This document shows, in pieces, positions 4,876 through 46,838 of a stretch of 52,713 bases of DNA (its first letter is position 1; the number at the start of each line of letters is the position of its first letter). The translations under genes were made by a program, and so were the position numbers. Below the pieces are notes generated by a model. It was not told the DNA's origin, did no database searches, and was given only the letters and a program-made list of their open reading frames with translations. The stretch is from positions 1 through 52,713 of IMG/VR virus record IMGVR_UViG_3300045971_000144; one strand, written 5' to 3'. This stretch comes from a virus. Its lineage: Duplodnaviria; Caudoviricetes.

Positions 4876-6333
4876 ATGAACTTATTCATCACATACCTTC
4901 CATTTTTACTTGCAGGCACATTGTACGGGTTCGTCTTTGGACTTATTCCTGTTGCAGGAGCAATGACTGGGCTGCTGACAGTTTACAGCTTTATTGGAGT
5001 GTTTGGGCACGACCCATACGCAATGGTTGTTTTTACAACGGCGTTGGTGGTAGCATGTAGTATAGGTGATTTATTCTCAAGCATCGTCATGAACATACCT
5101 GGTGCTGCTGGTAGCGCAGCGACGATGGTAGACGGTTTCCCAATGAGCAAAAAGGGGCAGGCGGCACGAGCGTTAAGCGCAGGTATTTTTAGCAGTGTTG
5201 GGCAGGGGTTAGTGTGGGGCACGTTAGTATTTTTGTTCTTGCCGTATTACGCTCCCGTGGTGTTGAGCTTTGGTATACCTGAAATGCTAATGTTCTTAGT
5301 TTTCTCTATGGCAAGTGTCACCTTTATCAATAGCCACCATTGGGGCAGAGGGTTGATTGCGTTAGGTGCTGGTGTATTTTTAGGGTTAGTGGGTCTTGAC
5401 CCAACAACTGGTGCGGCGAGGTTTACGGGTGGGTGGTACTACTTAGCGGACGGCATACAGTTGATACCAGTGATTGCTGGCTTCTTGGCTGTGCCTGAAA
5501 TCGTGGAAGCATTGTACTTTAAGATTAAACATGTTCCACCACCTAAAAACAATCTCGAGCAAATACGGCAAGGCATGAAGGATTCGTGGCGATATAAATG
5601 GGACTCGTTCCGCGGTGGGCTCATTGGTGGTGCAATTGGCTTACTGCCTGGCATTGGCGGGGCAATATGCGATTGGATGGCGTACGGGCAAACTGTTGCG
5701 CTGGCTAAGAATGACAAGATTCCGTTTGGTGAAGGCAATGTGCGTGGCGTGGTTGGTCCAGAGGGATCTGCGTTAGCACAAAAAGCGACCTCGTATGTGC
5801 CTACAGTGTTGTTTGGTGTTCCTGGGGCGCCGTTTGAGGTTATCGTGATGTCGCTGTTCATGATGATGGGACTGGAGATGGGCACAGTAGAAACGCTAAC
5901 AGACGCGAAGTTTTTTAGCTCGCTAAGTTACGGGTACATGGGCAGCTTATTGCTAACATTTGGTATTGCACTGGTGTTTATCAAGTACGCAAGCGGCATA
6001 ACTAAAATTCCTATGAAGTTTTACTTCATCCCTATTCTAGGTGTGATTGTGTGGAGTAGCGTACAATACACTGGTGGGTGGGAAGATTACGCGATGGTGT
6101 TTTTGTGTAGTGTTGCTGGCTTGCTGTGCAAACATTACAAATTTAGTAGGATCAGTTTGCTCATTGGGTTTATACTGGCAGGCAGATTAGAGAAAAACTT
6201 GATACAATACACCTCGCTGTATGACTGGGCTGATGTTTTCACTCGCCCCATTAGCTTAGTTATCATTGCGATGACATTAGTGGCAATCGTGTACGGCATC
6301 TTCTTTAACAAAGCAAAGATTAACTACGTATAA
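4876..6333 (+). CDS. tctA: tripartite tricarboxylate transporter large permease TctA family
   Basis: 485 aa polytopic membrane protein; GLIP, NIPGAAGSAATMVDGFPM, GLLPGIGG, GPEG and FGVPG motifs. Confidence 0.88.
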   Translation: MNLFITYLPFLLAGTLYGFVFGLIPVAGAMTGLLTVYSFIGVFGHDPYAMVVFTTALVVACSIGDLFSSIVMNIPGAAGSAATMVDGFPMSKKGQAARALSAGIFSSVGQGLVWGTLVFLFLPYYAPVVLSFGIPEMLMFLVFSMASVTFINSHHWGRGLIALGAGVFLGLVGLDPTTGAARFTGGWYYLADGIQLIPVIAGFLAVPEIVEALYFKIKHVPPPKNNLEQIRQGMKDSWRYKWDSFRGGLIGGAIGLLPGIGGAICDWMAYGQTVALAKNDKIPFGEGNVRGVVGPEGSALAQKATSYVPTVLFGVPGAPFEVIVMSLFMMMGLEMGTVETLTDAKFFSSLSYGYMGSLLLTFGIALVFIKYASGITKIPMKFYFIPILGVIVWSSVQYTGGWEDYAMVFLCSVAGLLCKHYKFSRISLLIGFILAGRLEKNLIQYTSLYDWADVFTRPISLVIIAMTLVAIVYGIFFNKAKINYV

Positions 6334-6336
6334 ATA
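6329..6336 (+). promoter_or_regulatory. T4-type late promoter TATAAATA
   Basis: Exact T4 late consensus overlapping the tctA stop, upstream of tctC. Confidence 0.65.
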
Positions 6337-6427
6337 AAAGTGCTTACTTAGAAAGAGTACAATGTTCACCAAGGTGAAAACATCGTACAGTCATACAACG
6401 TAAGTGACATTTTATAGGAGAAATCAC

Positions 6428-7492
6428 ATGTCAAAATTGAAGAGCATTCTCATGGCCGTTGCTTTGGGAATTTGTAGCATTGCACAAGCTGAATACCAAT
6501 TCATTGTGCCGCAAGAGCCTGGTAACGGGACGGATATTTGGGCTCGTATTGTAGCCCGTGAGATGAGTAAGAAGTTAGGCGAGGAAATTACAGTAGTTAA
6601 TATTCCTGGTGCTAACGACATTCCTGGGTTCAACAAGTTCCACAACTCATTGCGTAAAGACAACAAGGTAGTGATGGTTGCGCACGGTGGCAACGCAGAA
6701 AGTTATCTGTATCAGCAAGTAGACTACGATTATAAATTGTACGATCCCGTTGGACTACAAAACATTACAGTGATGATTGGCCGCAGATCTGATATGGATG
6801 TGTACAAGGATGTTATTAAATTTCCATCAGCGTCAGGTACTAATCCAGACATTATCGCAATGACATTGTTGGTGTGTGGCCCAGGCAAGACGATGAAAGA
6901 GTACGCAGCTTGTTACAAAGAGCACTTTAGGTATGTGAACGGGATGACGGGCAACGAGCGTAGACTTGCTTATTTCCGTGGCGAGTTAAACTCAATTCGT
7001 GAAACACCGTCAGCGTATATAAAGAACGTTACTAAGTTTGAGAAAAACGTGGACTGGTTTAATCCTGGTGTATTAGACTTAGCGTCAGGCAAAGTAGTAA
7101 CTGATGTAAACTTTCCTAAGGTAACGTTTGCTGATGTGTACAAAGCTAAATGGGGTGTGGCGCCGTCTGGTGACTTGTACGATGCGTGGTTGTTAGTTAA
7201 AAACTATCGTGACGTGCTACAGAAAGCACTGTATGTAAACAAGGGCAACCCAAATCGCGCAAAACTCATCCAAGCCCTACAAGCTACGCTAGCTGATCCA
7301 ATCAGCCTAGCAGCAATTGAGAAAGAAACGGGTAAATATCAGTGGATTATTGGCGATGATGTTAATAAAGCCCAAGCTACGTTAGAAAAGCTTACTACCA
7401 AGAAAGCACTTAAAGATTTAGTTTGGTTCACTGGTACAGTGCTCGGCAAAGAAGCTATTTACAAAGACAACATAGCAGCAAAAGCACATTAA
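6428..7492 (+). CDS. tctC: TctC/Bug-family periplasmic substrate-binding protein
   Basis: Signal peptide; IVPQEPGNGTDIWAR..VVNIPGA matches the Bug/TctC N-terminal motif; AGGAG SD at 6416-6420; adjacent to tctA. Confidence 0.8.
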   Translation: MSKLKSILMAVALGICSIAQAEYQFIVPQEPGNGTDIWARIVAREMSKKLGEEITVVNIPGANDIPGFNKFHNSLRKDNKVVMVAHGGNAESYLYQQVDYDYKLYDPVGLQNITVMIGRRSDMDVYKDVIKFPSASGTNPDIIAMTLLVCGPGKTMKEYAACYKEHFRYVNGMTGNERRLAYFRGELNSIRETPSAYIKNVTKFEKNVDWFNPGVLDLASGKVVTDVNFPKVTFADVYKAKWGVAPSGDLYDAWLLVKNYRDVLQKALYVNKGNPNRAKLIQALQATLADPISLAAIEKETGKYQWIIGDDVNKAQATLEKLTTKKALKDLVWFTGTVLGKEAIYKDNIAAKAH

Positions 7493-9764: not shown

Positions 9765-10652
9765 ATGAATCATTATGAAACTTTGGGCGTAGCTAAGACT
9801 GCAACCCAAGATGAAATCAAACAAGCATTTCGAAAACTTTCGAGTCTTCACCATCCAGACAAAGGTGGTGATGCTGAAAAGTTCAAAGCGGTATCTACCG
9901 CTAACGATGTCTTACGAGACCCGCAAAGACGTGCACAGTATGATGAAGAAATAGCAGGTGGCGGAAATAGACAATTTCGGTTCTCTGCTCACCGAAATCC
10001 ACCTGGCATGGACCCAGACATGGGCAATATAGAAGATATTTTGTCGCACTTGCGTAGGCAGTTTGGCAACAACCATTCAGGGTTTGATCCATTTGCACAG
10101 TTTACACAAGCACAGCAACGTAGATCTCCAAGCAACCCAGATGTTCGAATTTCCATACAGTTAGATGTAGTATCAACTTTTGAAGAACAAGAAAAAGAGT
10201 TGAATATCAACATTCCGAATTTCAAAACGGAAACAATCAAAATTAAAATTCCACGTGGTGTTCGGACTGGCAATACTATACGGTATCCAGGGTTAGGATC
10301 AAACCAGATACCCAATGCTCCAAAATCAGACTTGTATGTTCAGTTCCAAGTAAGGACTCCGCCTGACTTTGAACAACGAGACATTGACTTGTTTACCACA
10401 CTTAATATAAACTGCTTAGAAGCAATAGCCGGTTGTGAAAAGGAAGTAGCTGGTGTTGACGGCAAGGTGTTTTCCATTAAGATACCACCGGGCGTTCAAT
10501 ACGGCGCAAAATTCGGAATCCCCGAGCAAGGTGCCTATACCACAGATCACCCAGGTAGAGGAAAGTTAATAGTCGTATTGCAAATTTATATTCCAAAAGA
10601 ATTAACTGCCGAGCAATTAACTATTATTAGTGACATAGCCAAGACGATATAA
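9765..10652 (+). CDS. dnaJ: DnaJ/CbpA-like co-chaperone (no zinc finger)
   Basis: J-domain (HYETLGV, HHPDKGG), G/F-rich linker, DnaJ C-terminal domain (KIPRGV, DLYV, KIPPG). Confidence 0.92.
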   Translation: MNHYETLGVAKTATQDEIKQAFRKLSSLHHPDKGGDAEKFKAVSTANDVLRDPQRRAQYDEEIAGGGNRQFRFSAHRNPPGMDPDMGNIEDILSHLRRQFGNNHSGFDPFAQFTQAQQRRSPSNPDVRISIQLDVVSTFEEQEKELNINIPNFKTETIKIKIPRGVRTGNTIRYPGLGSNQIPNAPKSDLYVQFQVRTPPDFEQRDIDLFTTLNINCLEAIAGCEKEVAGVDGKVFSIKIPPGVQYGAKFGIPEQGAYTTDHPGRGKLIVVLQIYIPKELTAEQLTIISDIAKTI

Positions 10653-10675: not shown

Positions 10676-13600
10676 ATGATTAATTCAAGCCCAGAAGTAG
10701 AACTTATTGTCAGCAACGCAAGCAACTATGCTAAAGAGCAAAAGCACGAATATGTGACTTTAGAGCATTTAGCATTAGCGTTAGTGCAGCATCAAGAGTT
10801 CAACGATCTTTTAGTTAAACTCCACATTGATGTCAACGGCATCGAGAATGATTTAAAAGAGCATATCAATGCACAGGCTTACTTAGTAAGCGTTGACCCA
10901 GCGTATGAGTCCCCTAAGCGAACTCATGCTTTAGAGCGTGTGTTTAACCGTGCGTTTACACAGGTGCTATTCAGTGGCCGCACTAACATGCTGGTGGCTG
11001 ACATTTACATTAGTTTGACTAGTGAGAATCACAGTCAAGCGCAGTTTATATTTTCACGCTATGGTATCAACCCACAAGACTTGGTTAAGTTTTACAAGAA
11101 GAACTATAACGAGGCTAAAGGTAGTAAACTCGCAACTTCGCATAAAGCAGATTCTATACTGGACGAGTTTTGTACTAACCTAAACGAAAAAGCAATCGCA
11201 GGTAAGATTGATCCGGTGATTGGGCGTGACGATGAACTGGCAGAGATTACTGAAGTATTAGCAAAGCGTAACAAAAGCAACGTGCTCATGGTTGGTGACC
11301 CAGGCGTTGGTAAAGCCCAGCCATTATATTCTAAGGTCAAAACCCCGTCAGGGTGGACTACTATTGACGAAATTAAGGTTGGCACAACAATTACTGCTCA
11401 TGATGGCAAAGATACCACGGTGATAGGCGTGTTTCCCCAAGGAAAAAAAGAGATATACGAAATTGTGTTTGCTGACGGTCGTACTGCTAGATCGTCCATA
11501 GACCATCTATGGACGATCTATGGGAAATTTGGTGAAGCATATACTACACCCGGAGGATGGAAGAGTAAACGTGTAGGCCCCACGACAATGGAATTGTCTG
11601 CAATTATTGAGAAAAGCAAAACTAATAAATCTTATATTAAAGGATTGCATATCCCGTTAATTTCACACCAGTACGATAAACAAAATATCGAGGTTCCAAT
11701 TGCTCCATACCTATTAGGAGCGTTAATTGGTGATGGGTGTTACGCTCCAACCAAAATGGGGTTTACTAGTGCCGATCAATTTATGGTTGATAAAGTTGCT
11801 ACTCTTCTGCCAGACAATTGTTTTATAAGCCAATCCGGAAAGGTAATTGATTTTAAAATTAATGGGAGAAATTTATCTGAAAAGTTCATTCCTGGTGGCA
11901 GTAGGTATAGAGGGCAGACACCAAATCCCTTAAAGGAAAAATTAATCGACCTTGGAATTTATGGACAGAGAAGTCATGAGAAATATATACCAGAACAATA
12001 TTTTAATTGCTCGAATCAGCAAAAGATTGAACTGATACAAGGATTGATGGACACAGATGGCTATGTAGGCAAAAATGGGACATTACAATATACTTCAACC
12101 TCATTCACTCTTGCTAATCAAGTAGTCGAATTAGTTCGCAGCATCGGAGGTATCGCAACCATACGTGCAAAAATTAATAACACATACTTATATAAGGGTG
12201 AACGGGTTTCATGTAAAGATGCATATACTGTTAACATTAGATACTACCAGCCTAATTCTTTAGTTACATTGCCAAGGAAACTTGAAAGAATTAGCAAAAA
12301 TTATCAATACAGCAATCTAAGACTTGGCATTTCTGACATTAAATATGTGGGTGAAGAAGAATGTAAATGCATAATGATCGACCATCCAGATCATTTATAC
12401 ATCACTGACAATTATGTCGTGACCCATAACACTGCGGTGGCAGAAGGGCTTGCGCTACACATTACACAAGGTGTAGTGCCAGAGTATCTTAAAGAGTTTA
12501 CTGTTTACAATCTTGACATTGGCTCGCTGCTCGCAGGTAGCAAATACAGGGGAGAGTTTGAAGAGAAGTTGAAAGATGTTTTACGTGCGTTAGAGACTAA
12601 GGGCAATACTATATTGTTTATTGACGAAGCGCATCAAATGCGTGGTGCTGGCGCAGGTGGTGGCGGCAGTAGCGTAGACTTTGCTAACATGATTAAACCA
12701 GCGTTAAGTAAAGGTAACATCAAAGTTATTGCGTCAACAACATGGGAAGAATACACGTCATCGTTTGAAAAGGATCGTGCGTTGATGCGGCGTTTTTACC
12801 GCATGAACATTACTGAGCCAACATCTGAAGTGGCAGTAAACATTCTCAACGGATTAAAATCGCATTTTGAGAAATTCCACAAAGGTAAGATTACAGACGA
12901 AGCGATTGACGCAGCAGTTAGTTTGAGCGTTAGATATCAGACTGACAAACGATTGCCAGACAAGGCTATTGACTTGATTGATACTGCGTGTGCTAAGAAG
13001 CGCATACTTGGTAAGCAGTTTACTATTGGCCGCGGTGAGATCGTGGAAGTGTTAAGCAAGATTACTAAAATTCCAACGGACCAAATTGGTGTTGACCAAT
13101 CAACTTCTTCAGCATCGTTAGTTAACTTAGAAGCTGATCTCAAGACTAAGTTATACGGGCAGGATCAAGCAATCGACGAAGTATTAGACAAGATTTATGT
13201 TGCTAAGTCAGGCTTGAAAGCATTGGATAAGCCAATGGGCAGTTTCTTGTTTATTGGCCCAAGTGGAGTAGGTAAGACAGAGCTTGCTAAACTGTTGGCT
13301 GCAAACTTGCAAATGAAACTAATCCGCTTTGACATGTCAGAGTATCAGGAAAAACATACAGTAGCAAAACTTATTGGTGCGCCTCCTGGCTACGTTGGCT
13401 ACGAGGATGGCAACTTGGGTGGCGGCTTACTTGTTAGCGAGATTGAGAAGAATCCTAACTCTATTGTGCTGTTTGATGAAATAGAAAAAGCACACCCAGA
13501 TGTGTCTAACGTTTTGCTGGCACTTATGGATGAAGGTGCAGTTACATCAAGTAATGGTAAGAAAGCAGATGCTCGTAATACTATTGTTATTATGACGTCT

Positions 13601-14092
13601 AACTTGGGTGCTGCTGAAAGCGAGAGGAATAGCATCGGGTTTGGTAATATTAAAGATCGTTCCGGTGAAGATGACAAAGCAATTAAAGAGTTCTTTAAAC
13701 CAGAGTTCCGCAATAGACTCGATGGCATTTGTAAGTTTAAGAAACTTGATGAACTTAGTATTAAGCGTGTTGTGCACAAGTTTATGGCTGAAGTTGAAGA
13801 GTTGTTGTCAGAGAAGAAGATTAAAATCAAGCTCACTGAAGCGGCTGTTGACTTCTTGGCTAAAGAAGGCTTTGACCCGGCGATGGGTGCACGGCCAATG
13901 GCACGTAAAATACACACGTTGATTAAAGTGCCGTTGAGTAAGAAGATTTTGTTTGAGGGTGTGTCGGCAAAAGCGTTAGTAATGGTTGATGTGGTTGATG
14001 ACAAAATAGTGCTTAAAGTTATAAACGCCACAGTGTCTCCAGAACAAGCAGTAATTGACGAAAATGGTTTCATCCAAATACCAATGGCGTAA
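10676..14092 (+). CDS. clpA: ClpA-like AAA+ chaperone/protease subunit containing an intein
   Basis: Clp N-domain (HEYVTLEHL), DPVIGR, GDPGVGK/T, LFIDEAH, GPSGVGKT, RFDMSEY, LFDEIEKAH, IGF loop and GARP; no ClpB middle domain. Confidence 0.93.
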   Translation: MINSSPEVELIVSNASNYAKEQKHEYVTLEHLALALVQHQEFNDLLVKLHIDVNGIENDLKEHINAQAYLVSVDPAYESPKRTHALERVFNRAFTQVLFSGRTNMLVADIYISLTSENHSQAQFIFSRYGINPQDLVKFYKKNYNEAKGSKLATSHKADSILDEFCTNLNEKAIAGKIDPVIGRDDELAEITEVLAKRNKSNVLMVGDPGVGKAQPLYSKVKTPSGWTTIDEIKVGTTITAHDGKDTTVIGVFPQGKKEIYEIVFADGRTARSSIDHLWTIYGKFGEAYTTPGGWKSKRVGPTTMELSAIIEKSKTNKSYIKGLHIPLISHQYDKQNIEVPIAPYLLGALIGDGCYAPTKMGFTSADQFMVDKVATLLPDNCFISQSGKVIDFKINGRNLSEKFIPGGSRYRGQTPNPLKEKLIDLGIYGQRSHEKYIPEQYFNCSNQQKIELIQGLMDTDGYVGKNGTLQYTSTSFTLANQVVELVRSIGGIATIRAKINNTYLYKGERVSCKDAYTVNIRYYQPNSLVTLPRKLERISKNYQYSNLRLGISDIKYVGEEECKCIMIDHPDHLYITDNYVVTHNTAVAEGLALHITQGVVPEYLKEFTVYNLDIGSLLAGSKYRGEFEEKLKDVLRALETKGNTILFIDEAHQMRGAGAGGGGSSVDFANMIKPALSKGNIKVIASTTWEEYTSSFEKDRALMRRFYRMNITEPTSEVAVNILNGLKSHFEKFHKGKITDEAIDAAVSLSVRYQTDKRLPDKAIDLIDTACAKKRILGKQFTIGRGEIVEVLSKITKIPTDQIGVDQSTSSASLVNLEADLKTKLYGQDQAIDEVLDKIYVAKSGLKALDKPMGSFLFIGPSGVGKTELAKLLAANLQMKLIRFDMSEYQEKHTVAKLIGAPPGYVGYEDGNLGGGLLVSEIEKNPNSIVLFDEIEKAHPDVSNVLLALMDEGAVTSSNGKKADARNTIVIMTSNLGAAESERNSIGFGNIKDRSGEDDKAIKEFFKPEFRNRLDGICKFKKLDELSIKRVVHKFMAEVEELLSEKKIKIKLTEAAVDFLAKEGFDPAMGARPMARKIHTLIKVPLSKKILFEGVSAKALVMVDVVDDKIVLKVINATVSPEQAVIDENGFIQIPMA
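11315..12430 (+). mobile_element. class 3-type intein with LAGLIDADG endonuclease in the ClpA Walker A motif
   Basis: Inserted at GK|T; starts AQPL and ends VVTHN; block B HLW, block F CKCI; YLLGALIGDG and LIQGLMDTDG motifs; 372 aa. Confidence 0.92.
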
Positions 14093-14789
14093 GTTTTTAC
14101 CTGCTAAGGATATAGAATACGCAAATAAACTATATCACGAAAAATACCTGTATTCTGCCACCATTTCATTTAGACTTGCGTTTTATGTAAGGTGGGCAGA
14201 AAAGAAAACGTTTGAAGAGTTATGTAAGGCGTTAGATGATCGTTTTACTGCACGTAGCCGATGGCAGGGGTTTGACACCACCACTACTACTATGCTTCCC
14301 ACTCTCGTCGAGAAAACACAGATATACGTATTGTCTCAGTTCATTAAGAAAAACAAAAAAGTATTCAGAACTCGAATTGAAAATAATGCTGTGATGTTTT
14401 ATACAGTAACTGATGCTACTATGCATCAAATATTTCATTTTATAAAGCAAAATACAGATTACAAAATCAAGAAATTGTATCTTCCACAGGATGTTAATAT
14501 CCCACGGGCAACAATAATCGTTAAACGGAAACCAGAGTTTCAATACAAAGTATACATCAAATATTCTAAGTATCCTGAGGAAACAAAGAAGCAATTTTTA
14601 GCTTATATTCAAGCTAACTCCTCATCAATTAACGCTCCAGATGGCCTTATTTCCAGATTGTCAAACTTGAAATCAAGACACATTGCTGGATTTTACTATA
14701 TAAATGACCAATCACTATTGCTGTTTATTCAGTTGATTTCCCCAGATTTGGTTAAGAAAATATATACACTACAGCAGCAGACACCATAA
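14064..14789 (+). CDS. hypothetical protein
   Basis: Long basic ORF overlapping the clpA end; start uncertain (TTG 14055 or ATG 14064). Confidence 0.65.
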   Translation: MVSSKYQWRKFLPAKDIEYANKLYHEKYLYSATISFRLAFYVRWAEKKTFEELCKALDDRFTARSRWQGFDTTTTTMLPTLVEKTQIYVLSQFIKKNKKVFRTRIENNAVMFYTVTDATMHQIFHFIKQNTDYKIKKLYLPQDVNIPRATIIVKRKPEFQYKVYIKYSKYPEETKKQFLAYIQANSSSINAPDGLISRLSNLKSRHIAGFYYINDQSLLLFIQLISPDLVKKIYTLQQQTP

Positions 14790-14810
14790 ATAATACAAAG
14801 GACCTAAATC

Positions 14811-14978
14811 ATGGCAAAAATCGTAGAAGAAGTTATCGTTATCAAATTGAGCCGTATTCTCAAAGACAACGAAAAAGACCCATCAACAATGGGCAACCAA
14901 GAAATGCTTGCTACACTTGAATCAGTAGTTCAAGAGTTAGTGGGCGATGGTGTGGTAGTTGAGGCAACTGCGGCGTAA
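14811..14978 (+). CDS. small hypothetical protein (55 aa, not in ORF track)
   Basis: MAKIVEEVIVIKLSRILKD...VEATAA*; TAAATA at 14787-14792 and AAGGA SD; TAATG overlap with the next gene. Confidence 0.7.
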   Translation: MAKIVEEVIVIKLSRILKDNEKDPSTMGNQEMLATLESVVQELVGDGVVVEATAA

Positions 14979-15337
14979 TGGCAAACTTATCAGTCACATT
15001 ATTTCCATCATTACTTATTGATGGCAACACTGTGTTTCCTATCAAAAGTGTTAAAGCTAAAGGTAGGGGATATCTTGACACGGGTGGGTTACACACTATA
15101 CAATACACTACAGTGAATAACTTTGTAGGTGTTATCAAAATACGAGCAACATTAGCAACTGAACCTGCTGAGACTGATTGGTTTGATGTTCACGGTGTTT
15201 ACTTAGGCGACAACATTACTCCAGTGCCAGATGGCGCAGTGACACAGAATTTCACAGGTAACTTTGTGTGGGTTAGGGCAGTAGTCATTAGCCATACAAC
15301 GGGCAACATTAATCGCGTTTTATTTAATCACTCTTAA
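14978..15337 (+). CDS. hypothetical beta-rich protein (possibly virion-associated)
   Basis: 119 aa ORF in a late operon; FTGNFVWVRA. Confidence 0.65.
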   Translation: MANLSVTLFPSLLIDGNTVFPIKSVKAKGRGYLDTGGLHTIQYTTVNNFVGVIKIRATLATEPAETDWFDVHGVYLGDNITPVPDGAVTQNFTGNFVWVRAVVISHTTGNINRVLFNHS

Positions 15338-15343
15338 AAATTC

Positions 15344-16195
15344 ATGAAGAAAAAACAAAACTTTGCTAAAAAAGCAACTGCTCCAGCGAGCGTGTCAGAC
15401 GCACCAAACGTAACATTGGCGGGCAATACGCACACCAGTATTATTTCCCAAATCAAAGACATTCAAGCACAGCAAGCAATTAGTAATCCGTCACCTCAGG
15501 GTGTAGCATTTGATTTCTCCAAGTGCCACTTACACATTGGCTTACCTTGCTATGGTGGTTTAGTGTTAGAGTCAACAATGACGAGTTTCATTAAGTTTAT
15601 CCTTATGTGTTCTAAAGTTGGCTTGTCGTGGTCAATGGACACAATGGTAAACGAGTCCCTTATTACTCGTGGACGCAATAACTTGATGGCTAAGTTGATG
15701 ACAAACAAGACAGCAACCCACTTTATGTTTGTTGATGCTGATATCAAATTTGAGCCAGAGTCGATTTTCCAGATGATGGCCGCTGACGTTGACATTGTGT
15801 CCGGGGCATACCCAAAGAAGGCCTACCCCATCGCACTAAACATCAATTTGAAGCAGCAAACAAAAATTAAAGGCCCATTATTTACTGTAGATACTGCGGC
15901 GACAGGATTCCTAATGTTTAAACGTAAGGTATATGAGGACTTGATTGCTGCCCACCCCCAAACAAAATATGTTGATGACGTGGGATTAGGAAAGCAATAT
16001 GAGCCGTTTATGTATGCCATCTTTGATTGCATCATTGATGAAAAGGGCCATTACTTGAGTGAAGATTGGACCTTCTGCCGTAGGGCATCAGCTCTTGGGT
16101 ATGATATATGGTGTGATGGCCGTGTTTTGCTTGACCATACTGGCACCCATACCTTTAAGGGCGATTTGTCGCTGATCACTGGACCTAAACCGTAA
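15344..16195 (+). CDS. GT-A fold glycosyltransferase
   Basis: SLITRGRN, FMFVDADI (DxD), ATGFLM, YLSEDWTFC and LDHTG motifs. Confidence 0.8.
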   Translation: MKKKQNFAKKATAPASVSDAPNVTLAGNTHTSIISQIKDIQAQQAISNPSPQGVAFDFSKCHLHIGLPCYGGLVLESTMTSFIKFILMCSKVGLSWSMDTMVNESLITRGRNNLMAKLMTNKTATHFMFVDADIKFEPESIFQMMAADVDIVSGAYPKKAYPIALNINLKQQTKIKGPLFTVDTAATGFLMFKRKVYEDLIAAHPQTKYVDDVGLGKQYEPFMYAIFDCIIDEKGHYLSEDWTFCRRASALGYDIWCDGRVLLDHTGTHTFKGDLSLITGPKP

Positions 16196-16802
16196 CAAGT
16201 TTATTGCGACAATTATCACCATGCCATCTTACCAATGCACCGCGTTGGTAAGATTTTTCACAATGAATACATTTAAATTTCGGTTGATTTTTATTTGATT
16301 CGGAATTTTTACGTTTTGATTCAGGGGAATGGGTTTTGTTATACATAGGATGATTAGTTCCCACCCTGTTTTCTCTGCTTACTAACCACCCTTTAGTGAT
16401 TCCATCACTATATCGTTTGCTCATTGCAGCAGTCAACTCACGTGGAGATGGTTTTCCTGCCAATGACTTCGAAATTTTTTGCTTAATTTCCTCAGATAAG
16501 TGTCTACCTGGTGCCCCGCCATCCATACCATTTTCAGGTATGCAATTTGCCCATTCGCTAGATTCAACAATGCGATTTTCAGTAGAAAACGACATTGCAA
16601 ACTTTGATAATTCCTCTTGATCCGTAAATAATTTATACCATATAGTGTCAACATGTTTGCCATGCTTAAATAAATGGCGCTTCCAATATTTCCCTGATCC
16701 ATAATACGTTAACGGATTTTTACGTGTAGTCTTACCAAAATATTTTAAACCAGTGATTTTATGTTGTTTAACGTATAGCCACGTCGGACGATAAATACCC
16801 AT
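16185..16802 (-). CDS. free-standing GIY-YIG-like (Seg-like) homing endonuclease with NUMOD3-like motifs
   Basis: LYVKQH..TGLKYFGKT, YYGSG, WAN..PENG..GG, HLSEEIKQKIS, HSPESKRKNS and a C-terminal CIHC..H..NC. Confidence 0.8.
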   Translation of the reverse strand: MGIYRPTWLYVKQHKITGLKYFGKTTRKNPLTYYGSGKYWKRHLFKHGKHVDTIWYKLFTDQEELSKFAMSFSTENRIVESSEWANCIPENGMDGGAPGRHLSEEIKQKISKSLAGKPSPRELTAAMSKRYSDGITKGWLVSRENRVGTNHPMYNKTHSPESKRKNSESNKNQPKFKCIHCEKSYQRGALVRWHGDNCRNKLVTV

Positions 16803-16872
16803 GCTGATTGCTCCTTTTAAGCGTTAGAGTAGTTGGAACCGCCAAGTTCGCGAACTACATTTATATTTATGC
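16800..16872. repeat. endonuclease-associated conserved structured element, copy 1
   Basis: 72/73 nt identical to 46724-46796; related to 48447-48516. Confidence 0.9.
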
Positions 16873-16879
16873 ATAAATA
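16864..16879. promoter_or_regulatory. palindromic back-to-back late promoters TATTTATGCATAAATA
   Basis: Perfect 16-bp palindrome giving ATAAATA on both strands between divergent genes. Confidence 0.65.
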
Positions 16880-16899
16880 CTATACTATTTGGAATATAC

Positions 16900-19800
16900 A
16901 TGTTCACCACTGAGTTATTTGAAGACCAAGCCAAAAATGTTAAGGTAATTTACCCCGGCAGGTTCCAGCCTTGGCATTCTGGCCACGCCGCTGTCTATAA
17001 CCACTTAGTCTCTAAATATGGGCTGAATAACGTATTCATCGTGACAAGCGACAAGCAGGACGGTGATAAATCCCCATTCTCTTTTGAAGAGAAGAAACGC
17101 ATGATGATGCTAACTGGCATTGATCCAAGCCACATCGTTATGTCTACACAGCCATACAGGGCAATGGAAGTAGTATCAACGTTTACCCCTGATACAGTAT
17201 TATTGTTTGCCGTTAGCGCAAAGGATATGGCAGAAGATCCTAGGTTCCAGTTTGCCCCAAAGAAAGATGGTTCGGCATCGTATTTTCAACCCTTTACCGA
17301 CATAAAGAAATGTGTCCCATTTGCTAAACATGCGTATATGGTCACAGTTCCAACATTTACTTTTACAGTGTTAGGTAAGCCAGCAAATAGCGCATCGCAA
17401 ATTCGTGCCCAGTTTGGTGCTGCTGACGATGAAACACAGAAGAAAATCGTAGCCGATTTATTTGGCAAATTTGACCACAGAATATATACTATCATGCGTT
17501 CCAAGTTAGTTCATAATCCTGCTCCAGTCACTGAAAGTAAAAATGCTAAATCGGAATTTACTGTTGCTGATTTTAAAATAGCACGGTTTGAATCATGGAC
17601 TGACTATACAAGATTCTTATCTGGACACAAGACATCTAAGCGAGATACCGTATGGAATTGGCCAACCGGAGTTGCGAAATTATTATCACCAAGTAAAAGT
17701 TGCTTACTGTCGGAATCCGCAGACACGAAGAACGATCGTTTATTAGCAAGGCAATTTTCTACTAGATTTAAGGCATTAGATCAAAGAGATTCTGTTATTA
17801 TTAAAAAAGGTAACTCAATAAGTGTTTTATCGTCAGTATTAGATCTAGACAAAAAGTCAATTGAATTACGCGGTTTTGTTAAATCGAAGAAAATTGTAGC
17901 TATCAACACAAATGCCGACGGATCTATAGATGTAATTGAATTTGACGACGGGTCTCAGTTTCCAGAACGTAACGAACTAACTTATGTGTTTAACCAAGAT
18001 ATTACTAACACAATATTTTTTGCTGATGAGTCGTCATCTAGTAGGGCGTATACTGAAATTTGGATGATGATGTCGTCAATGGAAGGTAGCGGATGGAATA
18101 TATCCAATCAATTGTCAGAATCGTCAATCAATGAAAGTTACACCTATTCAACTACTGACCCAGTAGCAAATGCTGATGAAGCGCAACGTATAGCAGATTT
18201 AAAAAGATTACGTGGCATGTTTAACGGCAACGAAAAACGTGCTCGCTACTTGGATAGCAAAGGATTGTTAAAAGCAACAAAAGCAGAAAAAGAATTCTTA
18301 TATAAAATGACAGATGCGTTAGGCAATCTCCGCCCGCGTATTGGAAATATGGAACAACCACAAACAGAGGCAGTAGTCAATGATGAATCTAAGATATTGG
18401 CTCACCTTGAAGAACAATTTGGCGAGATATACCCCCTTGGTACTACTATTAACGGAAAACGAATAAACTCGTTGACTGCTAACAAAAAATTATATTTGCA
18501 TTTGGCTGAAACAGAAGGTGGGCGCGGTATTGATTTTTATAATAGGCTTATTGCAGTTAAATTGCATTTGGCAAGCGGTATTCCTCTAACCGAGTCAGTT
18601 AAAGTCAACGAGGTAAATCCTTTATTTAGATTATTGGATACTTTTAACAACCCACACCAGGTGCAAGTTGGTGACAAATTATCAATCATTGAAGTATCGG
18701 CTTGGGTAAATGCCATCTACCTGGATGGATTTATTAAACAAAAAGAAGTAGTCGAAATTCATGCTGGAGCATTCGTTTTCAGTGACGGGTCATCGTGGCC
18801 CCAAAATACTTCGATAGTTCGTCAAACAAGCACAACAAAGCAATGCCTTTATTTTCATTCAAAATCTGATGCCGAGAAATGTCTAACTGCTATTTTAATG
18901 TTTGGAAATAAAATCGGTGACTGGGCAATACATAACGAGATAACAGAGGAAACTATGACAATCACAACTAACGAATCAGCAAACGACGCAGAATACTTTG
19001 ACAACTGGCACAAATGGGATCAAGCAGTGCGCCGCGCTGGTGGAACCACTGAACACTCAGGTGGCGGTAGATACAATGCTATTTGGATGGACGGAGAAAG
19101 TTTCGGTCTTTGGGATGAAAATACTGGTGAAGGCTACATTGACTATGAACAAGAGCAGCCATATTTAGGAAACAACGACTCGTTGGGTGAAGATACTCAA
19201 GTTGATGAAGCACGTGGTGACACTATTGAGGCACACGGCATACGTGGTATGAAACGTCAGCCGTGGAGACGCTCTTTTAAAGACTACGCAGCGATGGAAG
19301 CATGGTGCGAAAAGTATGATGCTGAAGTTTATGGCACTCGTGACACAGATGCTGCTAAACAAGGTAAGTTGGCCCCTGCTATGGGCAGTGATGAACAAGT
19401 AAACGAACTTAGCACAGGCACATTGAACAGGTATGTTGGCAAAGCAAAAAATGCTGTGCCAGCAAACTTACACCAAGCAAGCAACAGGATACATGGCATT
19501 ATGAAAGCAAAAGAAAAAGAGCATGGACGCAAAGTGGATAGCGACTTAGCACGGAAGGGCGACCCGCGCATGCAAGCTGAAGGTTACTGGCAAGACTCAG
19601 TAAAAGCAGTAGAGAAAAAGCGTGAAGCAGAAAAAGGCAAAACGTTTGAAAAGAACCCAGCAAGCCACGACAGAAACGGTGTATACAAAGGCGACAAAGA
19701 TTTGGCAGGTAATCCAGTTCCTAAGAAAGTTGATGAGGCTGGCAAAAAAGGCACGTCTGCTCATGCTAAGGAAGTTGCAGCTAAAAGTAAGAAGTATTAT

Positions 19801-20697
19801 GACGACCAAGCATTGAAAAACGAAAAAGCCGGTGAAACTTATAACTATGGTAACGCTAAAGTTACTAAGCTAACAGTTCCAGAAAGTAAACTTGGTGGTG
19901 TGCCATGGGGACCTATTGCTAACGAAGGTAGATTTGTCAAAGGCCCAGGTGGTGTGCCATTGGATCGCCAAGGCAATCCTATCCCGCCTAAAGTTAAAGA
20001 GCCACGTGCGCCAGCTGGTCCACGTCGTGACAGCAACGGCTTGACTAAAGAAGATTACAGCAAAGTATGGCGCAAGATTGAAGATGTAGTAAGCAACATT
20101 TTCCCAGACGGTGATCCTATTGACTGGCTTGCTCCTTGGTTAAACAGGTCAGGCATTAGAGACCATCATGTAGGTGAAGTGTTAGACAAAGCATCTAGGA
20201 TGAATGGATATAAAGACATCTATGCTTACTATGACTCGTTCAAGTCAGAAGATTACGGGTATAATCAAGGTGTGAAAGAAGGTGTTGTTGATTCCGTCAG
20301 AGCAATGAACTATAATCGGTTAGCAAAACGATCAGGTAACAAAGTAGATAATGCATTCGATAAAATGCACGATTACGATTTTACAGATCCAGATAGATTC
20401 CCACATGAAAAGGAATTTGCTGATCAGATGGATAAAAAAACACAACGACTCAATAAAGCCAAGCAGTTGGGCGCGGCAGATAAAGAGCAAGGTGTGAAAG
20501 AAGAGCAAGTCAATGAACTTAGCATTGATACATTAGAAAAATATGCTACCGCAGCTAACAGGAATCGCTCAGCAGTATCAGCTACACACATGGCACAGCA
20601 TAAATGGGACCCAAAAGTAGTTGACAAGATGGATCGCAGAGCTGATCATAGTATGAACGCATTGCACAAAGCAGATAACAAGAGAGCAGCAAAATAA
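16900..20697 (+). CDS. large mosaic protein: N-terminal HxGH cytidylyltransferase-like domain plus many short modules
   Basis: YPGRFQPWHSGH, PFSFEEK and SASQIR motifs; remainder punctuated by [ILV]-x-E-[SGA] linkers. Confidence 0.8.
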   Translation: MFTTELFEDQAKNVKVIYPGRFQPWHSGHAAVYNHLVSKYGLNNVFIVTSDKQDGDKSPFSFEEKKRMMMLTGIDPSHIVMSTQPYRAMEVVSTFTPDTVLLFAVSAKDMAEDPRFQFAPKKDGSASYFQPFTDIKKCVPFAKHAYMVTVPTFTFTVLGKPANSASQIRAQFGAADDETQKKIVADLFGKFDHRIYTIMRSKLVHNPAPVTESKNAKSEFTVADFKIARFESWTDYTRFLSGHKTSKRDTVWNWPTGVAKLLSPSKSCLLSESADTKNDRLLARQFSTRFKALDQRDSVIIKKGNSISVLSSVLDLDKKSIELRGFVKSKKIVAINTNADGSIDVIEFDDGSQFPERNELTYVFNQDITNTIFFADESSSSRAYTEIWMMMSSMEGSGWNISNQLSESSINESYTYSTTDPVANADEAQRIADLKRLRGMFNGNEKRARYLDSKGLLKATKAEKEFLYKMTDALGNLRPRIGNMEQPQTEAVVNDESKILAHLEEQFGEIYPLGTTINGKRINSLTANKKLYLHLAETEGGRGIDFYNRLIAVKLHLASGIPLTESVKVNEVNPLFRLLDTFNNPHQVQVGDKLSIIEVSAWVNAIYLDGFIKQKEVVEIHAGAFVFSDGSSWPQNTSIVRQTSTTKQCLYFHSKSDAEKCLTAILMFGNKIGDWAIHNEITEETMTITTNESANDAEYFDNWHKWDQAVRRAGGTTEHSGGGRYNAIWMDGESFGLWDENTGEGYIDYEQEQPYLGNNDSLGEDTQVDEARGDTIEAHGIRGMKRQPWRRSFKDYAAMEAWCEKYDAEVYGTRDTDAAKQGKLAPAMGSDEQVNELSTGTLNRYVGKAKNAVPANLHQASNRIHGIMKAKEKEHGRKVDSDLARKGDPRMQAEGYWQDSVKAVEKKREAEKGKTFEKNPASHDRNGVYKGDKDLAGNPVPKKVDEAGKKGTSAHAKEVAAKSKKYYDDQALKNEKAGETYNYGNAKVTKLTVPESKLGGVPWGPIANEGRFVKGPGGVPLDRQGNPIPPKVKEPRAPAGPRRDSNGLTKEDYSKVWRKIEDVVSNIFPDGDPIDWLAPWLNRSGIRDHHVGEVLDKASRMNGYKDIYAYYDSFKSEDYGYNQGVKEGVVDSVRAMNYNRLAKRSGNKVDNAFDKMHDYDFTDPDRFPHEKEFADQMDKKTQRLNKAKQLGAADKEQGVKEEQVNELSIDTLEKYATAANRNRSAVSATHMAQHKWDPKVVDKMDRRADHSMNALHKADNKRAAK
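20266..20503 (+). repeat. 16-nt direct repeat CAAGGTGTGAAAGAAG (QGVKE) with 222-nt spacing
   Basis: Identical copies at 20266-20281 and 20488-20503. Confidence 0.8.
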
Positions 20698-27834: not shown

Positions 27835-30045
27835 TTGAGTTACATTGACGCAATTCTCGATAAACAGCGAGATAAAATTCACGTTGTAGAACGTGACGAA
27901 ACGGGTAAGCGTGTTTACACTGAGTTCCCAACCGAATATGTCCTTTATTATGAGGATTCAAAAGGTAAACACCAAACCATTTACAGAACACCTGTATCTA
28001 AGTTTACAACACAATCCAATACTCAGTTTAGAAAAGAGTTAAAAATACATAGTAGTAAAAAACTATGGGAAAGCGATGTAAATCCAATCTTCCGTTGCTT
28101 AGAGAAAAACTATCTCGGCGCAAAATCCCCAAAACTCCATACATGCTTTTTCGACATTGAGTCCGACTTTGACTTAGCACAGGGCGGTTATGCGCCAGTG
28201 GATGATCCGTTTAATATGATCACGGCTATTACTGTTTACTTAGACTGGTTGGACAAACTCATCACCTTAGCAGTGCCGCCTAAGACTTTAACTTGGGATC
28301 AGGCAACTGAGATCGCAAGTTTCTTTGACGACACATACCTGTTTCATACCGAAGCAGAAATGCTTGACACGTTTTTAAACTTGATTGACGATGCGGATGT
28401 GATTAGCGGATGGAACAGTGAGGGCTATGACGTTCCTTACACTGTTGGACGCATTATGCGGGTGCTGGCTAAGGACGACCTACGCAGGCTTTGCTTGTGG
28501 GATCAAATGCCAAAGAAGCGAGAGTTTGAACGCTACGGTGCGAAAAGCATGACGTATGATTTATGCGGCCGTGTGCACCTGGACTATATGCAACTGTATC
28601 GCAAGTATACATATGAAGAACGCCACAGCTATTCCCTTGATGCAATCGGCGAGTATGAACTTAACGAGCGCAAGTTGGCGTACGAAGGATCATTGGATCA
28701 GTTATACAATCAAGACTTTAAAAAGTTCATCGACTATAACAGGCAAGATACTCGCTTGCTTGCTCGTTTAGACGAAAAACTACGCTTCTTAGACTTGGCA
28801 AATGAGTTGGCACATGATAATACAGTGTTGTTGGCGACAACAATGGGCGCGGTTGCAGTGACTGACCAAGCTATTATTAACGCAGCGCACAAACAGGGAT
28901 TGGTTGTTCCATCCAAACCGCCGTATGTTGAAGAGACTGATGACGATATTGACGACGATGACAGCGACGGTCGAGCCGCTGGAGCGTATGTAGCACAGCC
29001 TAAGGTAGGTATGCATCAGTATATAGGTGCTATCGACATTAACTCACTATACCCATCCACAATTCGTGCCCTTAACATGGGACCAGAAACTATCGTGGGG
29101 CAATTACGGCCAGTAATGAGCGAACAATATATTGCGTCTAAAATGGCAGACAAGATTGTTAACCACCAAAAGCGTAAAGGTATGTCATTTGCCGCAGCAT
29201 GGGACGGATTGTTTGGGAGTCTTGAATACATTGCAGTAATGGCCCAAGAGAAAGACACAGAGATTATCATTGACTGGGAAGGTGGTGAGGCCACTGCCCA
29301 TAGTGCTGCTGATGTGTGGTCGCTTATCTTTGAAGGTGGACAGAAGTGGATGCTAAGTGGCAACGGCACTATTTTCCGCTACGACATTGAAGGCATTATC
29401 CCCACATTGCTTGCTACTTGGTATAAAGAGCGTAAAGAGCTACAGGCTAAGAAGAAGGAAGCAACCACTAAGGAAGATATTGCGTTCTGGGATAAGCGAC
29501 AGTTAGTGAAGAAGATTAACTTGAACTCACTGTATGGTGCGTTGTTGAATCCAGGCTGTAGATTCCACGATTTTAGGATTGGGCAGTCCACTACACTGAC
29601 TGGGCGTGTTATTGCCAAGCACATGGATGCGTTTACAAACGAGTGTATTACAGGCAAGTATGAACACGATGGTAAAGCAATTGTTTACGGTGATAGCGTA
29701 ACTGGTGACAGCCTCGTTAAAACTGATTCGGGCGAAATCACTATTGCGGAGATGTTTGTGCAGTGTGCTGGGCACGATGTTTACGGCGAAAAGGAATATG
29801 GCTTTGATACTTCCGCTAAAGTAGTAGGGTTTGATATATGTAAAGATCAACCAATTATGAGTGAAGTATCGTTTGTGATTCGGCATAAGACTAAGAAGAA
29901 GTTATATAGAATAACAACAGAAAGCGGTGAGTCTGTTACAGTAACAGAAGATCATAGTATCATGGTAGACCGCGATGGATTCACAATAGAAGTTAAACCA
30001 ACACAACTTACATTAGATGACTTAATAATCAAGCTTGTGGCATAA
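27835..30045 (+). CDS. polB: family B DNA polymerase, N-terminal part fused to split-intein N-fragment
   Basis: ExoI FFDIES, ExoII SGWNSEGYD, ExoIII YNRQD, motif A DINSLYPS, motif B KINLNSLYG, then YGD followed by intein sequence; TTG start with AAGGA SD. Confidence 0.95.
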   Translation: MSYIDAILDKQRDKIHVVERDETGKRVYTEFPTEYVLYYEDSKGKHQTIYRTPVSKFTTQSNTQFRKELKIHSSKKLWESDVNPIFRCLEKNYLGAKSPKLHTCFFDIESDFDLAQGGYAPVDDPFNMITAITVYLDWLDKLITLAVPPKTLTWDQATEIASFFDDTYLFHTEAEMLDTFLNLIDDADVISGWNSEGYDVPYTVGRIMRVLAKDDLRRLCLWDQMPKKREFERYGAKSMTYDLCGRVHLDYMQLYRKYTYEERHSYSLDAIGEYELNERKLAYEGSLDQLYNQDFKKFIDYNRQDTRLLARLDEKLRFLDLANELAHDNTVLLATTMGAVAVTDQAIINAAHKQGLVVPSKPPYVEETDDDIDDDDSDGRAAGAYVAQPKVGMHQYIGAIDINSLYPSTIRALNMGPETIVGQLRPVMSEQYIASKMADKIVNHQKRKGMSFAAAWDGLFGSLEYIAVMAQEKDTEIIIDWEGGEATAHSAADVWSLIFEGGQKWMLSGNGTIFRYDIEGIIPTLLATWYKERKELQAKKKEATTKEDIAFWDKRQLVKKINLNSLYGALLNPGCRFHDFRIGQSTTLTGRVIAKHMDAFTNECITGKYEHDGKAIVYGDSVTGDSLVKTDSGEITIAEMFVQCAGHDVYGEKEYGFDTSAKVVGFDICKDQPIMSEVSFVIRHKTKKKLYRITTESGESVTVTEDHSIMVDRDGFTIEVKPTQLTLDDLIIKLVA
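29695..30042 (+). mobile_element. split intein N-fragment (116 aa)
   Basis: Block A SVTGDSLV after YGD; block B VTVTEDHSIM; ends at the stop codon. Confidence 0.9.
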
Positions 30046-30074
30046 ATACTATATGGAGATAGGAGTATTAGCAT

Positions 30075-31031: not shown

Positions 31032-31132
31032 AGTCAGTCGAATGTCTAGGAGAAGTGGATGACTACGTTTATGATATAAGCGTTACTGGTCAAGACCCAG
31101 TATTCTTCGCAAACGACTTGCTCGTTAAAAAT
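31007..31132 (+). mobile_element. split intein C-fragment (42 aa)
   Basis: VKSVE..YVYDISV..FFANDLLVKN followed by +1 Thr; blocks F and G. Confidence 0.9.
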
Positions 31133-34222: not shown

Positions 34223-34447
34223 ATGGCAGCATCAGTAGAATCATACAACAAGAAATATTTGCGTATGAAACCAGAGGTTACACAAATTTTTGACATGTTG
34301 GATGAGTATTTGGATTTTGTGCGGCTACAATACCCGGCTGTGCCGTTTGATCCGAGCACTATGTACCACAACTCGAGCGAAACATGGAGGCGATTCACTC
34401 GTAGTCGCAATCAGCCATATCGTAATGAGCAGCAAGCACAACGATAA
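34223..34447 (+). CDS. hypothetical protein
   Basis: 74 aa ORF with AGGA SD. Confidence 0.6.
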   Translation: MAASVESYNKKYLRMKPEVTQIFDMLDEYLDFVRLQYPAVPFDPSTMYHNSSETWRRFTRSRNQPYRNEQQAQR

Positions 34448-46726: not shown

Positions 46727-46796
46727 GCTGATTGCTCCTTTTAAGCGTTAGAGTAGTTGGAACCGCCAAGTTCGCGAACTACATTTTTATTTATGC
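46724..46796. repeat. endonuclease-associated conserved structured element, copy 2
   Basis: 72/73 nt identical to 16800-16872. Confidence 0.9.
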
Positions 46797-46838
46797 CAGA
46801 ATGCTTGCGATGAAACTATTTTAATGCTACACTACAGC

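Follow-up and report, generated by a model that had tools for sequence, protein, structure and literature searches.

It is poorly understood how lytic phages can bear dozens of selfish nuclease genes; in T4, the known controls on such genes are gene-specific hairpins and autorepression. The present case comes from an uncultured viral contig (IMG/VR record IMGVR_UViG_3300045971_000144; Caudoviricetes; G+C 40.7%), analysed over its whole length of 52.7 kb and called the window below. Its DNA polymerase B is closest to those of T4-related jumbo phages (47% identity to PA5oct; also Phosso, Atu_ph07 and SCTP-2). Three minus-strand homing endonuclease open reading frames (ORFs) sit among + strand genes of the window, and a short element with two hairpins spans the start codon of each. 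An initial annotation, made from the sequence alone, had observed this element and listed several functions for it. The two-hairpin element is real. It is an abundant RNA motif, backed by covariation, in uncultured, mostly freshwater, T4-related giant phages, and the module as a whole takes up roughly 95 bases. Among the listed functions, antisense regulator fits best and terminator is possible. A probability of roughly 0.45 is given here to the reading in which the element is a gene for a cis-antisense small RNA that would cover the Shine–Dalgarno (SD) sequence and AUG of the nuclease mRNA and limit nuclease output.

Conserved fold, folding strand and facing boxes

The first two copies of the element (16800-16872 and 46724-46796) had been described as near-identical beside diverged nuclease genes. 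They match at 72 of 73 positions, one base apart, and the adjoining nuclease ORFs (205 vs 169 aa) have 56% identity over ~117 aa. Copy 3 (48447-48516) retains AAGCGTTAGAGTAG, as was also reported; the exact 14-mer occurs three times in the window, each time at one of the three copies. With up to three mismatches allowed, there are four matches where 3.9 are expected, and weight is accordingly given to the exact matches only. Single-sequence folding of the + strand, antisense to the nuclease, returns the stems that were originally drawn, and the minus strand across each start codon carries a late-type box, a leader and an ATG as described. In copy 1, the minus-strand reading of the folded core is the nuclease mRNA leader, the TAAATA box of the + strand lies inside the first codons (M-G-I-Y) of the nuclease ORF, and TATTTAT on the + strand forms the U-rich tail after the second hairpin, helix B. 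The outer stem of helix B in copy 3 reads GUAGGU/AUCUAC, with one G-U pair, and its inner stem is unlike that of copies 1 and 2; the fold of copy 3 has a predicted energy of -19.6 kcal/mol on the + strand vs -8.7 kcal/mol on the minus strand.

An 18-position pattern taken from the element has at least 121 matching stretches in IMG/VR. The same layout is present in all the matches listed (121/121). Read antisense to the ORF, its first half consists of TAAATA, 4-6 nt, GCUGAU(U)GCU, a loop, AGCGUUAG and A, and its second half of GUAGKU, G, a variable stem-loop, CGYG, AMCUAC, ~5 nt and UAUUUAU. A covariance model, R1, was built from 97 unique pattern-selected sequences among the matches listed (alignment A3). 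A search of the window with R1 at E up to 10 finds the three known copies and nothing else (scores in Table 1). A second alignment, A4, comprises 35 model-found instances, 32 of them from giant contigs or protein-retrieved loci and three from the window, none chosen by 17-mer.

Both alignments bear out the original description of two conserved, covarying and strand-specific hairpins. In A4, paired cells amount to 99.5% vs 86.2% in shuffled alignments, 13 of 19 pairs are changed on both sides vs 6.9, and the covariation score is 0.431 vs 0.159, and for each of these measures none of 500 shuffles reaches the observed value. When the partners are slid by 1-3 columns, pairing is only 30-53%. In A3, paired cells amount to 99.1% vs 92.0% and covariation to 0.195 vs 0.062 (0/500), whereas the four double-change pairs are not above shuffles (465/500 reach that number) because the search pattern fixed much of the 3' side. 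The compensatory changes in A4 are plain by eye. For instance, helix A occurs with the pairs GCU/AGC, ACU/AGU, UCU/AGA and GUC/GAC, and its longer arms as CUGAU/GUUAG, CUGGC/GUUAG and CUGUG/UAUAG. The outer stem of helix B varies among GUAGUU/AACUAC, GUGAGU/ACUCAC, GUCAGU/ACUGAC and GAGAAU/AUUCUC, and its inner stem is hypervariable, yet always paired.

The strand that folds can be read from the wobble pairs. The G-U pairs had been said to work on the + strand only, and the related sequences agree: G-U or U-G cells outnumber A-C or C-A cells by 224 to 8 in the 97 sequences and by 69 to 2 in the 35 sequences, the A-C cells being confined to the loop-closing pair. The fold thus belongs to the strand antisense to the nuclease. 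The lone G of helix B pairs as G-C (27 sequences), G-U (5) or A-U (3), a series that the nuclease strand reads as G-C, A-C and A-U. The minimum free energy (MFE) is lower on the + strand in 94 of 116 unique cores (mean -15.9 vs -12.8 kcal/mol). On the sense strand, the MFE structure of copies 1 and 2 pairs part of the SD (GAG) in a 4-bp stem, the leader of copy 3 is largely unstructured, and the helix A region has two C-A mismatches.

One wobble of helix A, between the G in CUGAU and the central U in GUUAG (columns 27/49 in both A3 and A4), is invariant in 97/97 and 35/35 sequences. It persists where the neighbouring pairs covary, which suggests a specific recognition feature more than simple pairing. 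A third, closing helix in which the two A/U boxes pair together was considered and dropped, because both boxes are almost invariant.

The fold is framed by two TAAATA boxes that face each other across ~56 nt in a mirror geometry, each ~5 nt from the base of a helix. On the + strand, 103 of 115 unique cores have an exact TAAATA ahead of helix A, with a spacing (measured to the G of GCUGAU) of 5 nt in 70 and of 4-6 nt in 101. The box of the nuclease strand, seen as exact TATTTA after helix B, is present in 114 of the 115 cores, at 5 nt in 87, and in 109 of these 114 its distance from helix B is 3-5 nt. The offset of the + box relative to the nuclease ATG is 0 in 18, 1 in 12 and 2 in 98 of 130 rows, which include some near-duplicates between A3 and A4. 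These offsets correspond to the N-termini M-Y-L, M-x-F and M-x-I-Y, on nucleases of unrelated families. Residue 2 of the nuclease varies, the box base within codon 2 is fixed, and the two bases beside the box vary freely. The + box is therefore selected as nucleotides and not as protein, as it occurs in all three reading frames with free flanking bases.

T4 late promoters have TATAAATA at -13 to -6, and by this geometry both transcripts would start at the G at the helix base. TAAATA is a plausible promoter in the window phage. It stands 21-33 nt before the ATG in ~9 of 49 + strand ORF starts of the window (checked by hand), and four of five related giant contigs have a gp55-like ORF of weak similarity (32-34% identity over ~70 aa, E 1e-6 to 4e-5). 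Both boxes of the element are accordingly named below as putative promoters.

Linkage to nuclease genes, cassette membership and distribution

The element had been proposed to be physically tied to the start of a mobile nuclease gene, and this tie is general. An ORF starts inside the element in 153/153 instances; collapsed by their first 60 residues, these ORFs give 122 unique ones, 90 complete and 32 that run off the locus. At least 100 aa are encoded by 86 of the 90 complete ORFs, and the other four (15-61 aa, with nuclease-like N-termini) are probably decayed nuclease genes. Among the instances examined, the element is found at nuclease-like ORF starts only. Behind the elements L033, L137, L157 and L159 there are just 15-61 codons of a nuclease-like ORF; evidently, the element head can outlive its nuclease gene.

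The genes behind the element belong to several families. A Pfam scan of 88 unique complete linked ORFs (E up to 0.001, and in addition the curated cut-off) assigned 17 to HNH_3 (17 over the cut-off), five to HNH (three over), five to GIY-YIG or SegE_GIY-YIG (three over), three to TnsA-like endonuclease N (three over), two to DUF7487 (one over) and one to DUF2089 (none over); 16 matched NUMOD3 only, and 39 had no match. The same element thus heads ORFs of at least four nuclease domain families, which makes it a family-independent head, and the initial view of it as particular to GIY-YIG genes was too narrow. The same applies to its supposed restriction to antisense insertions. By a crude ORF-length test on 99 loci, the left flank is antisense to the nuclease in 53, sense in 20, undecided in 23 and too short in 3, and the right flank is antisense in 58, sense in 15, undecided in 24 and too short in 2; about one-fifth of the decisive flanks are therefore co-oriented with the nuclease. 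Within the window itself, all three antisense nuclease ORFs have the element, as claimed. Of the sense-oriented nuclease genes said to lack it, only one is identified with certainty, a NUMOD3 gene at 43185-43778 that is indeed without it, and ORF 30075-31031 in the split DNA polymerase is a candidate second.

In giant contigs, the element is present on only part of the nuclease genes. Across five viral contigs of 210-360 kb, R1 finds 13, 13, 7, 4 and 1 copies, that is, up to 13 within one 333-360 kb phage genome, and by coordinate comparison 16 of 19 HNH_3 matches over the cut-off adjoin an R1 match, compared with one of seven for NUMOD3. Loci retrieved via one nuclease protein query have the element in 3 of 10 cases, a sample too small for an unbiased frequency, for which whole giant contigs were used instead.

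The border of the inserted unit can be seen at a flap-endonuclease gene of the window (46824-47828), of which 80 relatives were retrieved for comparison with empty sites. Elements are near the gene in just three of the 80. In L200, the closest relative (71% identity), neither side holds an insertion: a 44-nt spacer with TTGACT-N17-TACTAT precedes the flap-endonuclease gene, which is itself followed immediately by the next gene. The same upstream site does hold a cassette in L172, where the native CCAAAATA...TTGACT resumes right after TATTTAT. The element therefore forms the end of the inserted cassette; comparison of the occupied window and L172 with the empty allele places it inside the mobile unit, as the initial annotation had supposed.

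Just after copy 3, the window has a sigma-70-like sequence (Table 1) that is absent from the empty L200 and so may belong to the cassette, facing outward. TTGAC follows helix B at 19-24 nt in 20 of 126 instances, the remainder having a different sequence there, and occurs at any position after the element in 27 of 126 vs 8.6% expected. Judged from these motifs, some cassettes may bring an outward promoter for the downstream gene. At L022, L133, L137, L135, L150 and L153 (giant contigs G001 and G002), an extension TATTTATCTTTTTGNTTGACAT runs from the element to a -35 box close to consensus, and a -10-like box stands 17 nt further on, which suggests a cassette sub-type with an outward early promoter.

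Outside IMG/VR, the element leaves few traces. In Rfam 15, nothing matches the window, scanned in full at gathering thresholds, nor the segment 16700-16950 at E up to 10. Megablast of 14000-20000 against isolate phages (50,697 records) gave no match, and blastn of the element against the same records gave only seven chance matches of 18-31 nt within unrelated genes. Among bacterial and archaeal genomes, one per species, a 24-base pattern was found in only three contigs of metagenome-assembled genomes (two <2 kb, one 42.9 kb), which give no usable host clue. A tRNA-like reading of AGUUGG was dropped when ARAGORN reported no tRNA or tmRNA. No published description of the motif was found in searchable sources, a search that did not extend to two large supplement files of PMC10690425 or to Supplementary Figure S4 of PMC2677866. 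Unnamed candidates upstream of HNH and GIY-YIG genes are included in a catalogue of candidate structured IMG/VR RNAs from 2023 (PMC10690425). The motif string is absent from the searchable supplements of that catalogue, which leave two large files uncovered, and the element may be present in it, unnamed.

Table 1. Features of the three element copies, their nuclease genes and the adjoining promoter-like sequence in the window.
Feature	Coordinates	Strand	Description
Homing endonuclease ORF 1	16185-16802	-	205 aa, NUMOD3, phrog_314/655
Homing endonuclease ORF 2	46217-46726	-	169 aa, NUMOD3, phrog_314
Homing endonuclease ORF 3	47805-48449	-	214 aa, phrog_314, without Pfam match
Copy 1, + box TAAATA	16792-16797	+	5 nt ahead of the G preceding helix A; proposed late-type promoter of the antisense RNA
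Copy 1, folded core	16803-16858	+	two helices; covariance-model match 95.7 bits
Copy 1, helix A	16804-16808 and 16810-12, paired with 16820-22 and 16823-16827	+	
Copy 1, junction base	16828	+	A between the helices
Copy 1, helix B	16829-16834, G16835 and 16836-39, paired with 16846-49, C16851 and 16853-16858	+	
Copy 1, nuclease SD	complement of 16812-16815	-	
Copy 1, nuclease ATG	complement of 16800-16802	-	
Copy 1, ATAAATA box	16864-16870	-	TATTTAT on +; 5 nt outside helix B; proposed nuclease late promoter
Copy 2, module	46716-46794	+	TAAATA 46716-46721, folded core 46727-46782, TATTTAT 46788-46794; 94.4 bits
Copy 3, module	48439-48515	+	TAAATA 48439-48444, folded core 48451-48503, TATTTAT 48509-48515; 85.9 bits
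Sigma-70-like TTGACT-N17-TATTAT	48524-48552	+	just after copy 3, ahead of gene 48581-49297

A candidate cis-antisense RNA and competing functions

If the element is an antisense RNA gene, the box of the nuclease strand would start the nuclease mRNA, whose ~55 nt leader holds the SD and AUG, and the + box inside the first nuclease codons would start an RNA of ~65-70 nt. This RNA would fold into helix A, with the anti-SD at the helix top and loop, then helix B and a U-rich tail, ACUUUUAUUUAU. It would be the exact complement of the whole nuclease leader; by pairing with the leader it would block ribosome binding and keep nuclease output low, and the duplex would perhaps be open to RNases. The overlap covers the ribosome binding site (RBS) and start codon: the complement of the helix A 5' arm and loop is GGAG, followed by a 7-11 nt spacer and ATG. 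Because the copies in one genome share most of their sequence, the antisense RNAs could also act in trans.

Several points weigh against this reading. That the boxes act as promoters, that an antisense RNA is produced and terminates at helix B, and that the nuclease is repressed by it are all predictions from sequence. Helix B makes a poor textbook terminator, with an A/U-rich base, an internal loop and a U-run 2-3 nt past the stem (the consensus tail is A C U U U U A U U U A U), and a simple scan for intrinsic terminators across 16100-17000 found none; with so weak a terminator, the + transcript may extend into the following gene. Neither the U-rich tail nor the complementarity to SD and AUG is independent evidence, because both are given by the nuclease promoter and leader on the opposite strand. 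As for the structure itself, the A4 alignment was fitted to the structure of R1, in A3 the search pattern fixed the 3' arm of helix A, the shuffle counts and Wilcoxon P value are indicative and not true probabilities because the sequences are related, and single-sequence fold z-scores are weak (-0.5 to -1.8). Moreover, helix B probably forms also at the 5' end of the nuclease mRNA, because Watson-Crick covariation is symmetric, and a sense-strand role for it is conceivable.

It is unlikely that the + strand structure serves the neighbouring genes instead, be it as terminator, insulator or processing site for read-through or as a protective 5' leader transcribed from the + TAAATA box. Such a role would suit the flanking genes, which where decisive mostly lie on the + strand of the element, as well as the promoter sequences of downstream genes that the element abuts (the TTGAC of 20/126 instances and the TTGACT-N17-TATTAT after copy 3, missing from the empty L200). 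It would also suit T4 nuclease cassettes, which, in passages of one source, can carry promoters of downstream genes (PMC2988022). However, no terminator separates the same genes at the empty site, where they can evidently do without one, and the element is unchanged next to the one-fifth of decisive flanks that are co-oriented with the nuclease. A terminator guarding the nuclease gene would be expected at the opposite cassette end, helix B is weak in that capacity, and the conservation and covariation of helix A, which bears the anti-SD, would be left unexplained. The chances are poorer that the functional RNA is the nuclease mRNA leader, in which a 5'-terminal helix B would lend stability to the mRNA or serve as the binding site of a regulator (the nuclease itself, for example, or a translational repressor of the phage), and in which the G-U bias of the antisense strand would come from selection for an SD region that stays unpaired in the mRNA. 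Pairing is maintained in helix A by covariation, with G-U intermediates that pair on the + strand only; the series G-C/G-U/A-U of the lone G becomes G-C/A-C/A-U on the sense strand; and the + TAAATA box, fixed relative to helix A in all three frames, would have no role. These observations stand against a helix B that is mostly Watson-Crick and so forms on the sense strand too, a nuclease-strand box that is the better conserved of the two (114/115), and two conserved helix A G-U pairs that become C-A mismatches on the mRNA and leave the SD open. Hairpins in nuclease 5' untranslated regions (UTRs) with late promoters are, by parts of the literature, well known, and that of seg43(25) lies just upstream of an RBS that is not sequestered (PMC2988022, PMC2677866).

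An action mainly as DNA, with the RNA fold secondary, is improbable. As a portable promoter and stem-loop block for recombination, comparable to the PeSLs of T4-like phages, the element could account for one head before at least four nuclease families, for up to 13 copies per genome and for an insertion whose right edge is the element end; PeSLs are described, in the passages concerned, as composite terminator/promoter repeats at indel borders (PMC4122927). Homology for recombination needs identity, however, whereas a variable inner stem that is always paired, together with the G-U bias, points to selection on RNA or a single strand, and PeSLs flank many kinds of ORFs whereas the element is found at nuclease starts only. 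Very improbable indeed is any other single-strand role, such as an attC-like hairpin of single-stranded DNA in replication or homing, a ribozyme or an RNA cofactor of the nuclease. The strand-specific fold with its conserved unpaired bases (the G and GYG internal loop and the junction A) would agree with it, and G-T pairs are tolerated in single-stranded DNA. The ribozyme offered by the initial annotation is nonetheless unsupported, as no ribozyme or other Rfam match is seen at E up to 10; a nuclease-bound scaffold or common cofactor is unlikely because the nuclease families that share the element are unrelated; no integrase-like partner gene was seen among the window ORFs scanned; and the variable part is self-paired and not free as a guide.

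The antisense reading has an extension that is itself doubtful. In it, the unit under selection would be no nuclease but the RNA module (late promoter, leader and an antisense RNA gene whose own promoter is hidden in the first codons), behind which unrelated HNH, GIY-YIG and TnsA-like genes would have been repeatedly captured or swapped. The small RNAs of up to 13 copies would then brake all homing endonucleases of a giant phage in trans, and the hypervariable inner stem-loop of helix B would tune the cross-talk, like the kissing loops of plasmid antisense RNAs.

The element, which is common in uncultured giant phages but missing from Rfam and isolate genomes, would be a single portable RNA control module for nucleases of at least four families. 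An antisense function would extend IS10-type restraint of selfish elements to homing endonucleases, and it would provide a clear case of a promoter encoded in the first codons of the gene that it opposes. With the covariance model, free-standing nuclease cassettes can be recognised in phage genomes from metagenomes and their 5' borders placed exactly, also where the nuclease ORF is missed by Pfam (39/88), and ~115 natural variants are available for work on structure versus function.

Other genes of the window and comparison with known systems

The B-family DNA polymerase of the window is split into an N part (27835-30045) and a C part (31007-32026), the latter with a weak C-terminal intein-splicing match at residues 2-42. 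Between the two lies ORF 30075-31031 (318 aa, phrog_22677, of unknown family and without Pfam match), with a TAAATA box ahead. The whole region (27835-32026) resembles the fractured gene layout of split intein and free-standing nuclease set out in passages of an earlier study (PMC2677866). A ClpB-like AAA+ chaperone gene (10676-14092) has an in-frame LAGLIDADG_3 domain at residues 450-515, which suggests an intein, and a DnaJ homologue (9765-10652) lies just upstream. The sense-oriented NUMOD3 gene without the element is inserted just ahead of QueE (43765-44709), which forms a 7-deazaguanine pathway set with GTP cyclohydrolase I (38792-39469) and QueD (41072-41551). Other genes encode an Acb1 anti-CBASS homologue (34290-34910) and, at 4876-7492, a TctA subunit of a tripartite tricarboxylate transporter (E 3e-79) and, after it, a weak TctC-like receptor, an unusual auxiliary pair for a phage.

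Hairpins at nuclease genes of T4-type phages are one precedent. In the parts of the literature that describe I-TevI, I-TevII, I-TevIII, segB and Aeh1 mobE, the SD lies in a stem, the late promoter lies inside the hairpin, and late transcripts escape (PMC2988022). The element shares with these a TATAAATA-type late promoter and a hairpin 5' of a homing endonuclease gene, and the presumed purpose of restricting the nuclease (PMC2988022). It differs in that the SD side is only weakly paired on the sense strand, the box is not embedded in the hairpin but lies 5 nt outside helix B, and structural selection is on the antisense strand. Dassa et al. (2009) describe, in passages of their paper, 5' UTR hairpins with two conserved complementary motifs and TATAAATA at free-standing nuclease genes from ocean and lake metagenomes, including a hairpin that persists in one locus that lost its nuclease (PMC2677866). 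The likeness to the element is a conserved hairpin and late promoter before GIY-YIG and other free-standing nucleases in uncultured phage-like loci. Conversely, their nucleases are co-oriented with the fractured host gene and their late promoter lies inside the hairpin (PMC2677866). The main text of that paper does not contain the word 'antisense', and its passages on the hairpins do not mention covariation analysis; compared by main-text description, identity of the two motifs is possible.

The PeSLs of T4-like phages resemble the element as short, conserved, multi-copy blocks of stem-loop and promoter that border variable genes and for which modular shuffling has been proposed (PMC4122927). 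According to parts of that source, they combine an early sigma-70 promoter with one simple stem-loop of lineage-specific sequence and flank ORFans (PMC4122927), whereas the element has two late-type boxes, two covarying helices and a tie to nuclease start codons. Like PeSLs, the element is multi-copy at insertion borders (13, 13, 7, 4 and 1 copies in the giant contigs; occupied window and L172 vs empty L200). Unlike them, it is tied to one gene class and does not flank diverse ORFs. A candidate for a joined sigma-70 promoter, TTGAC 19-24 nt past helix B, is present in only 20/126 instances.

Antisense RNA at a phage nuclease gene would not be without parallel. The CfrI antisense RNA of cyanophage S-PM2, which Millard and colleagues are said to have reported in 2010, reportedly overlaps the F-CphI nuclease gene, is ~225 nt long and links psbA to the nuclease at a single locus. 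The likeness is an antisense RNA, predicted in the present case, that overlaps a homing endonuclease gene in a lytic T4-like phage; CfrI is, however, not known to be a repeated, family-independent cassette head with conserved structure. Cis-antisense control is otherwise known from the RNA-OUT/RNA-IN pair of IS10/Tn10, from P22 sar and from hok/sok. In IS10 as in the element, boxes stand face to face, a short stem-loop RNA (a predicted one here) is fully complementary to the mRNA across its 5' end, RBS and start codon, the target is the nuclease or transposase of a selfish element, and many copies could inhibit each other in trans. They differ in that the boxes here are of T4-late (gp55-type) character whereas IS10 promoters are sigma-70, in that the overlap here is the whole ~56 nt leader and the predicted RNA has two hairpins, and in that the host is a lytic giant phage whose cargo is homing endonucleases of several families. 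Of the features that define the IS10 type, the element has a stable, conserved stem-loop structure on the antisense strand and an overlap with the RBS and start codon. The repressing antisense transcript is a prediction here, as are the convergent promoters, read from mirror boxes that keep the 5-nt geometry in 103 and 114 of 115 cores.

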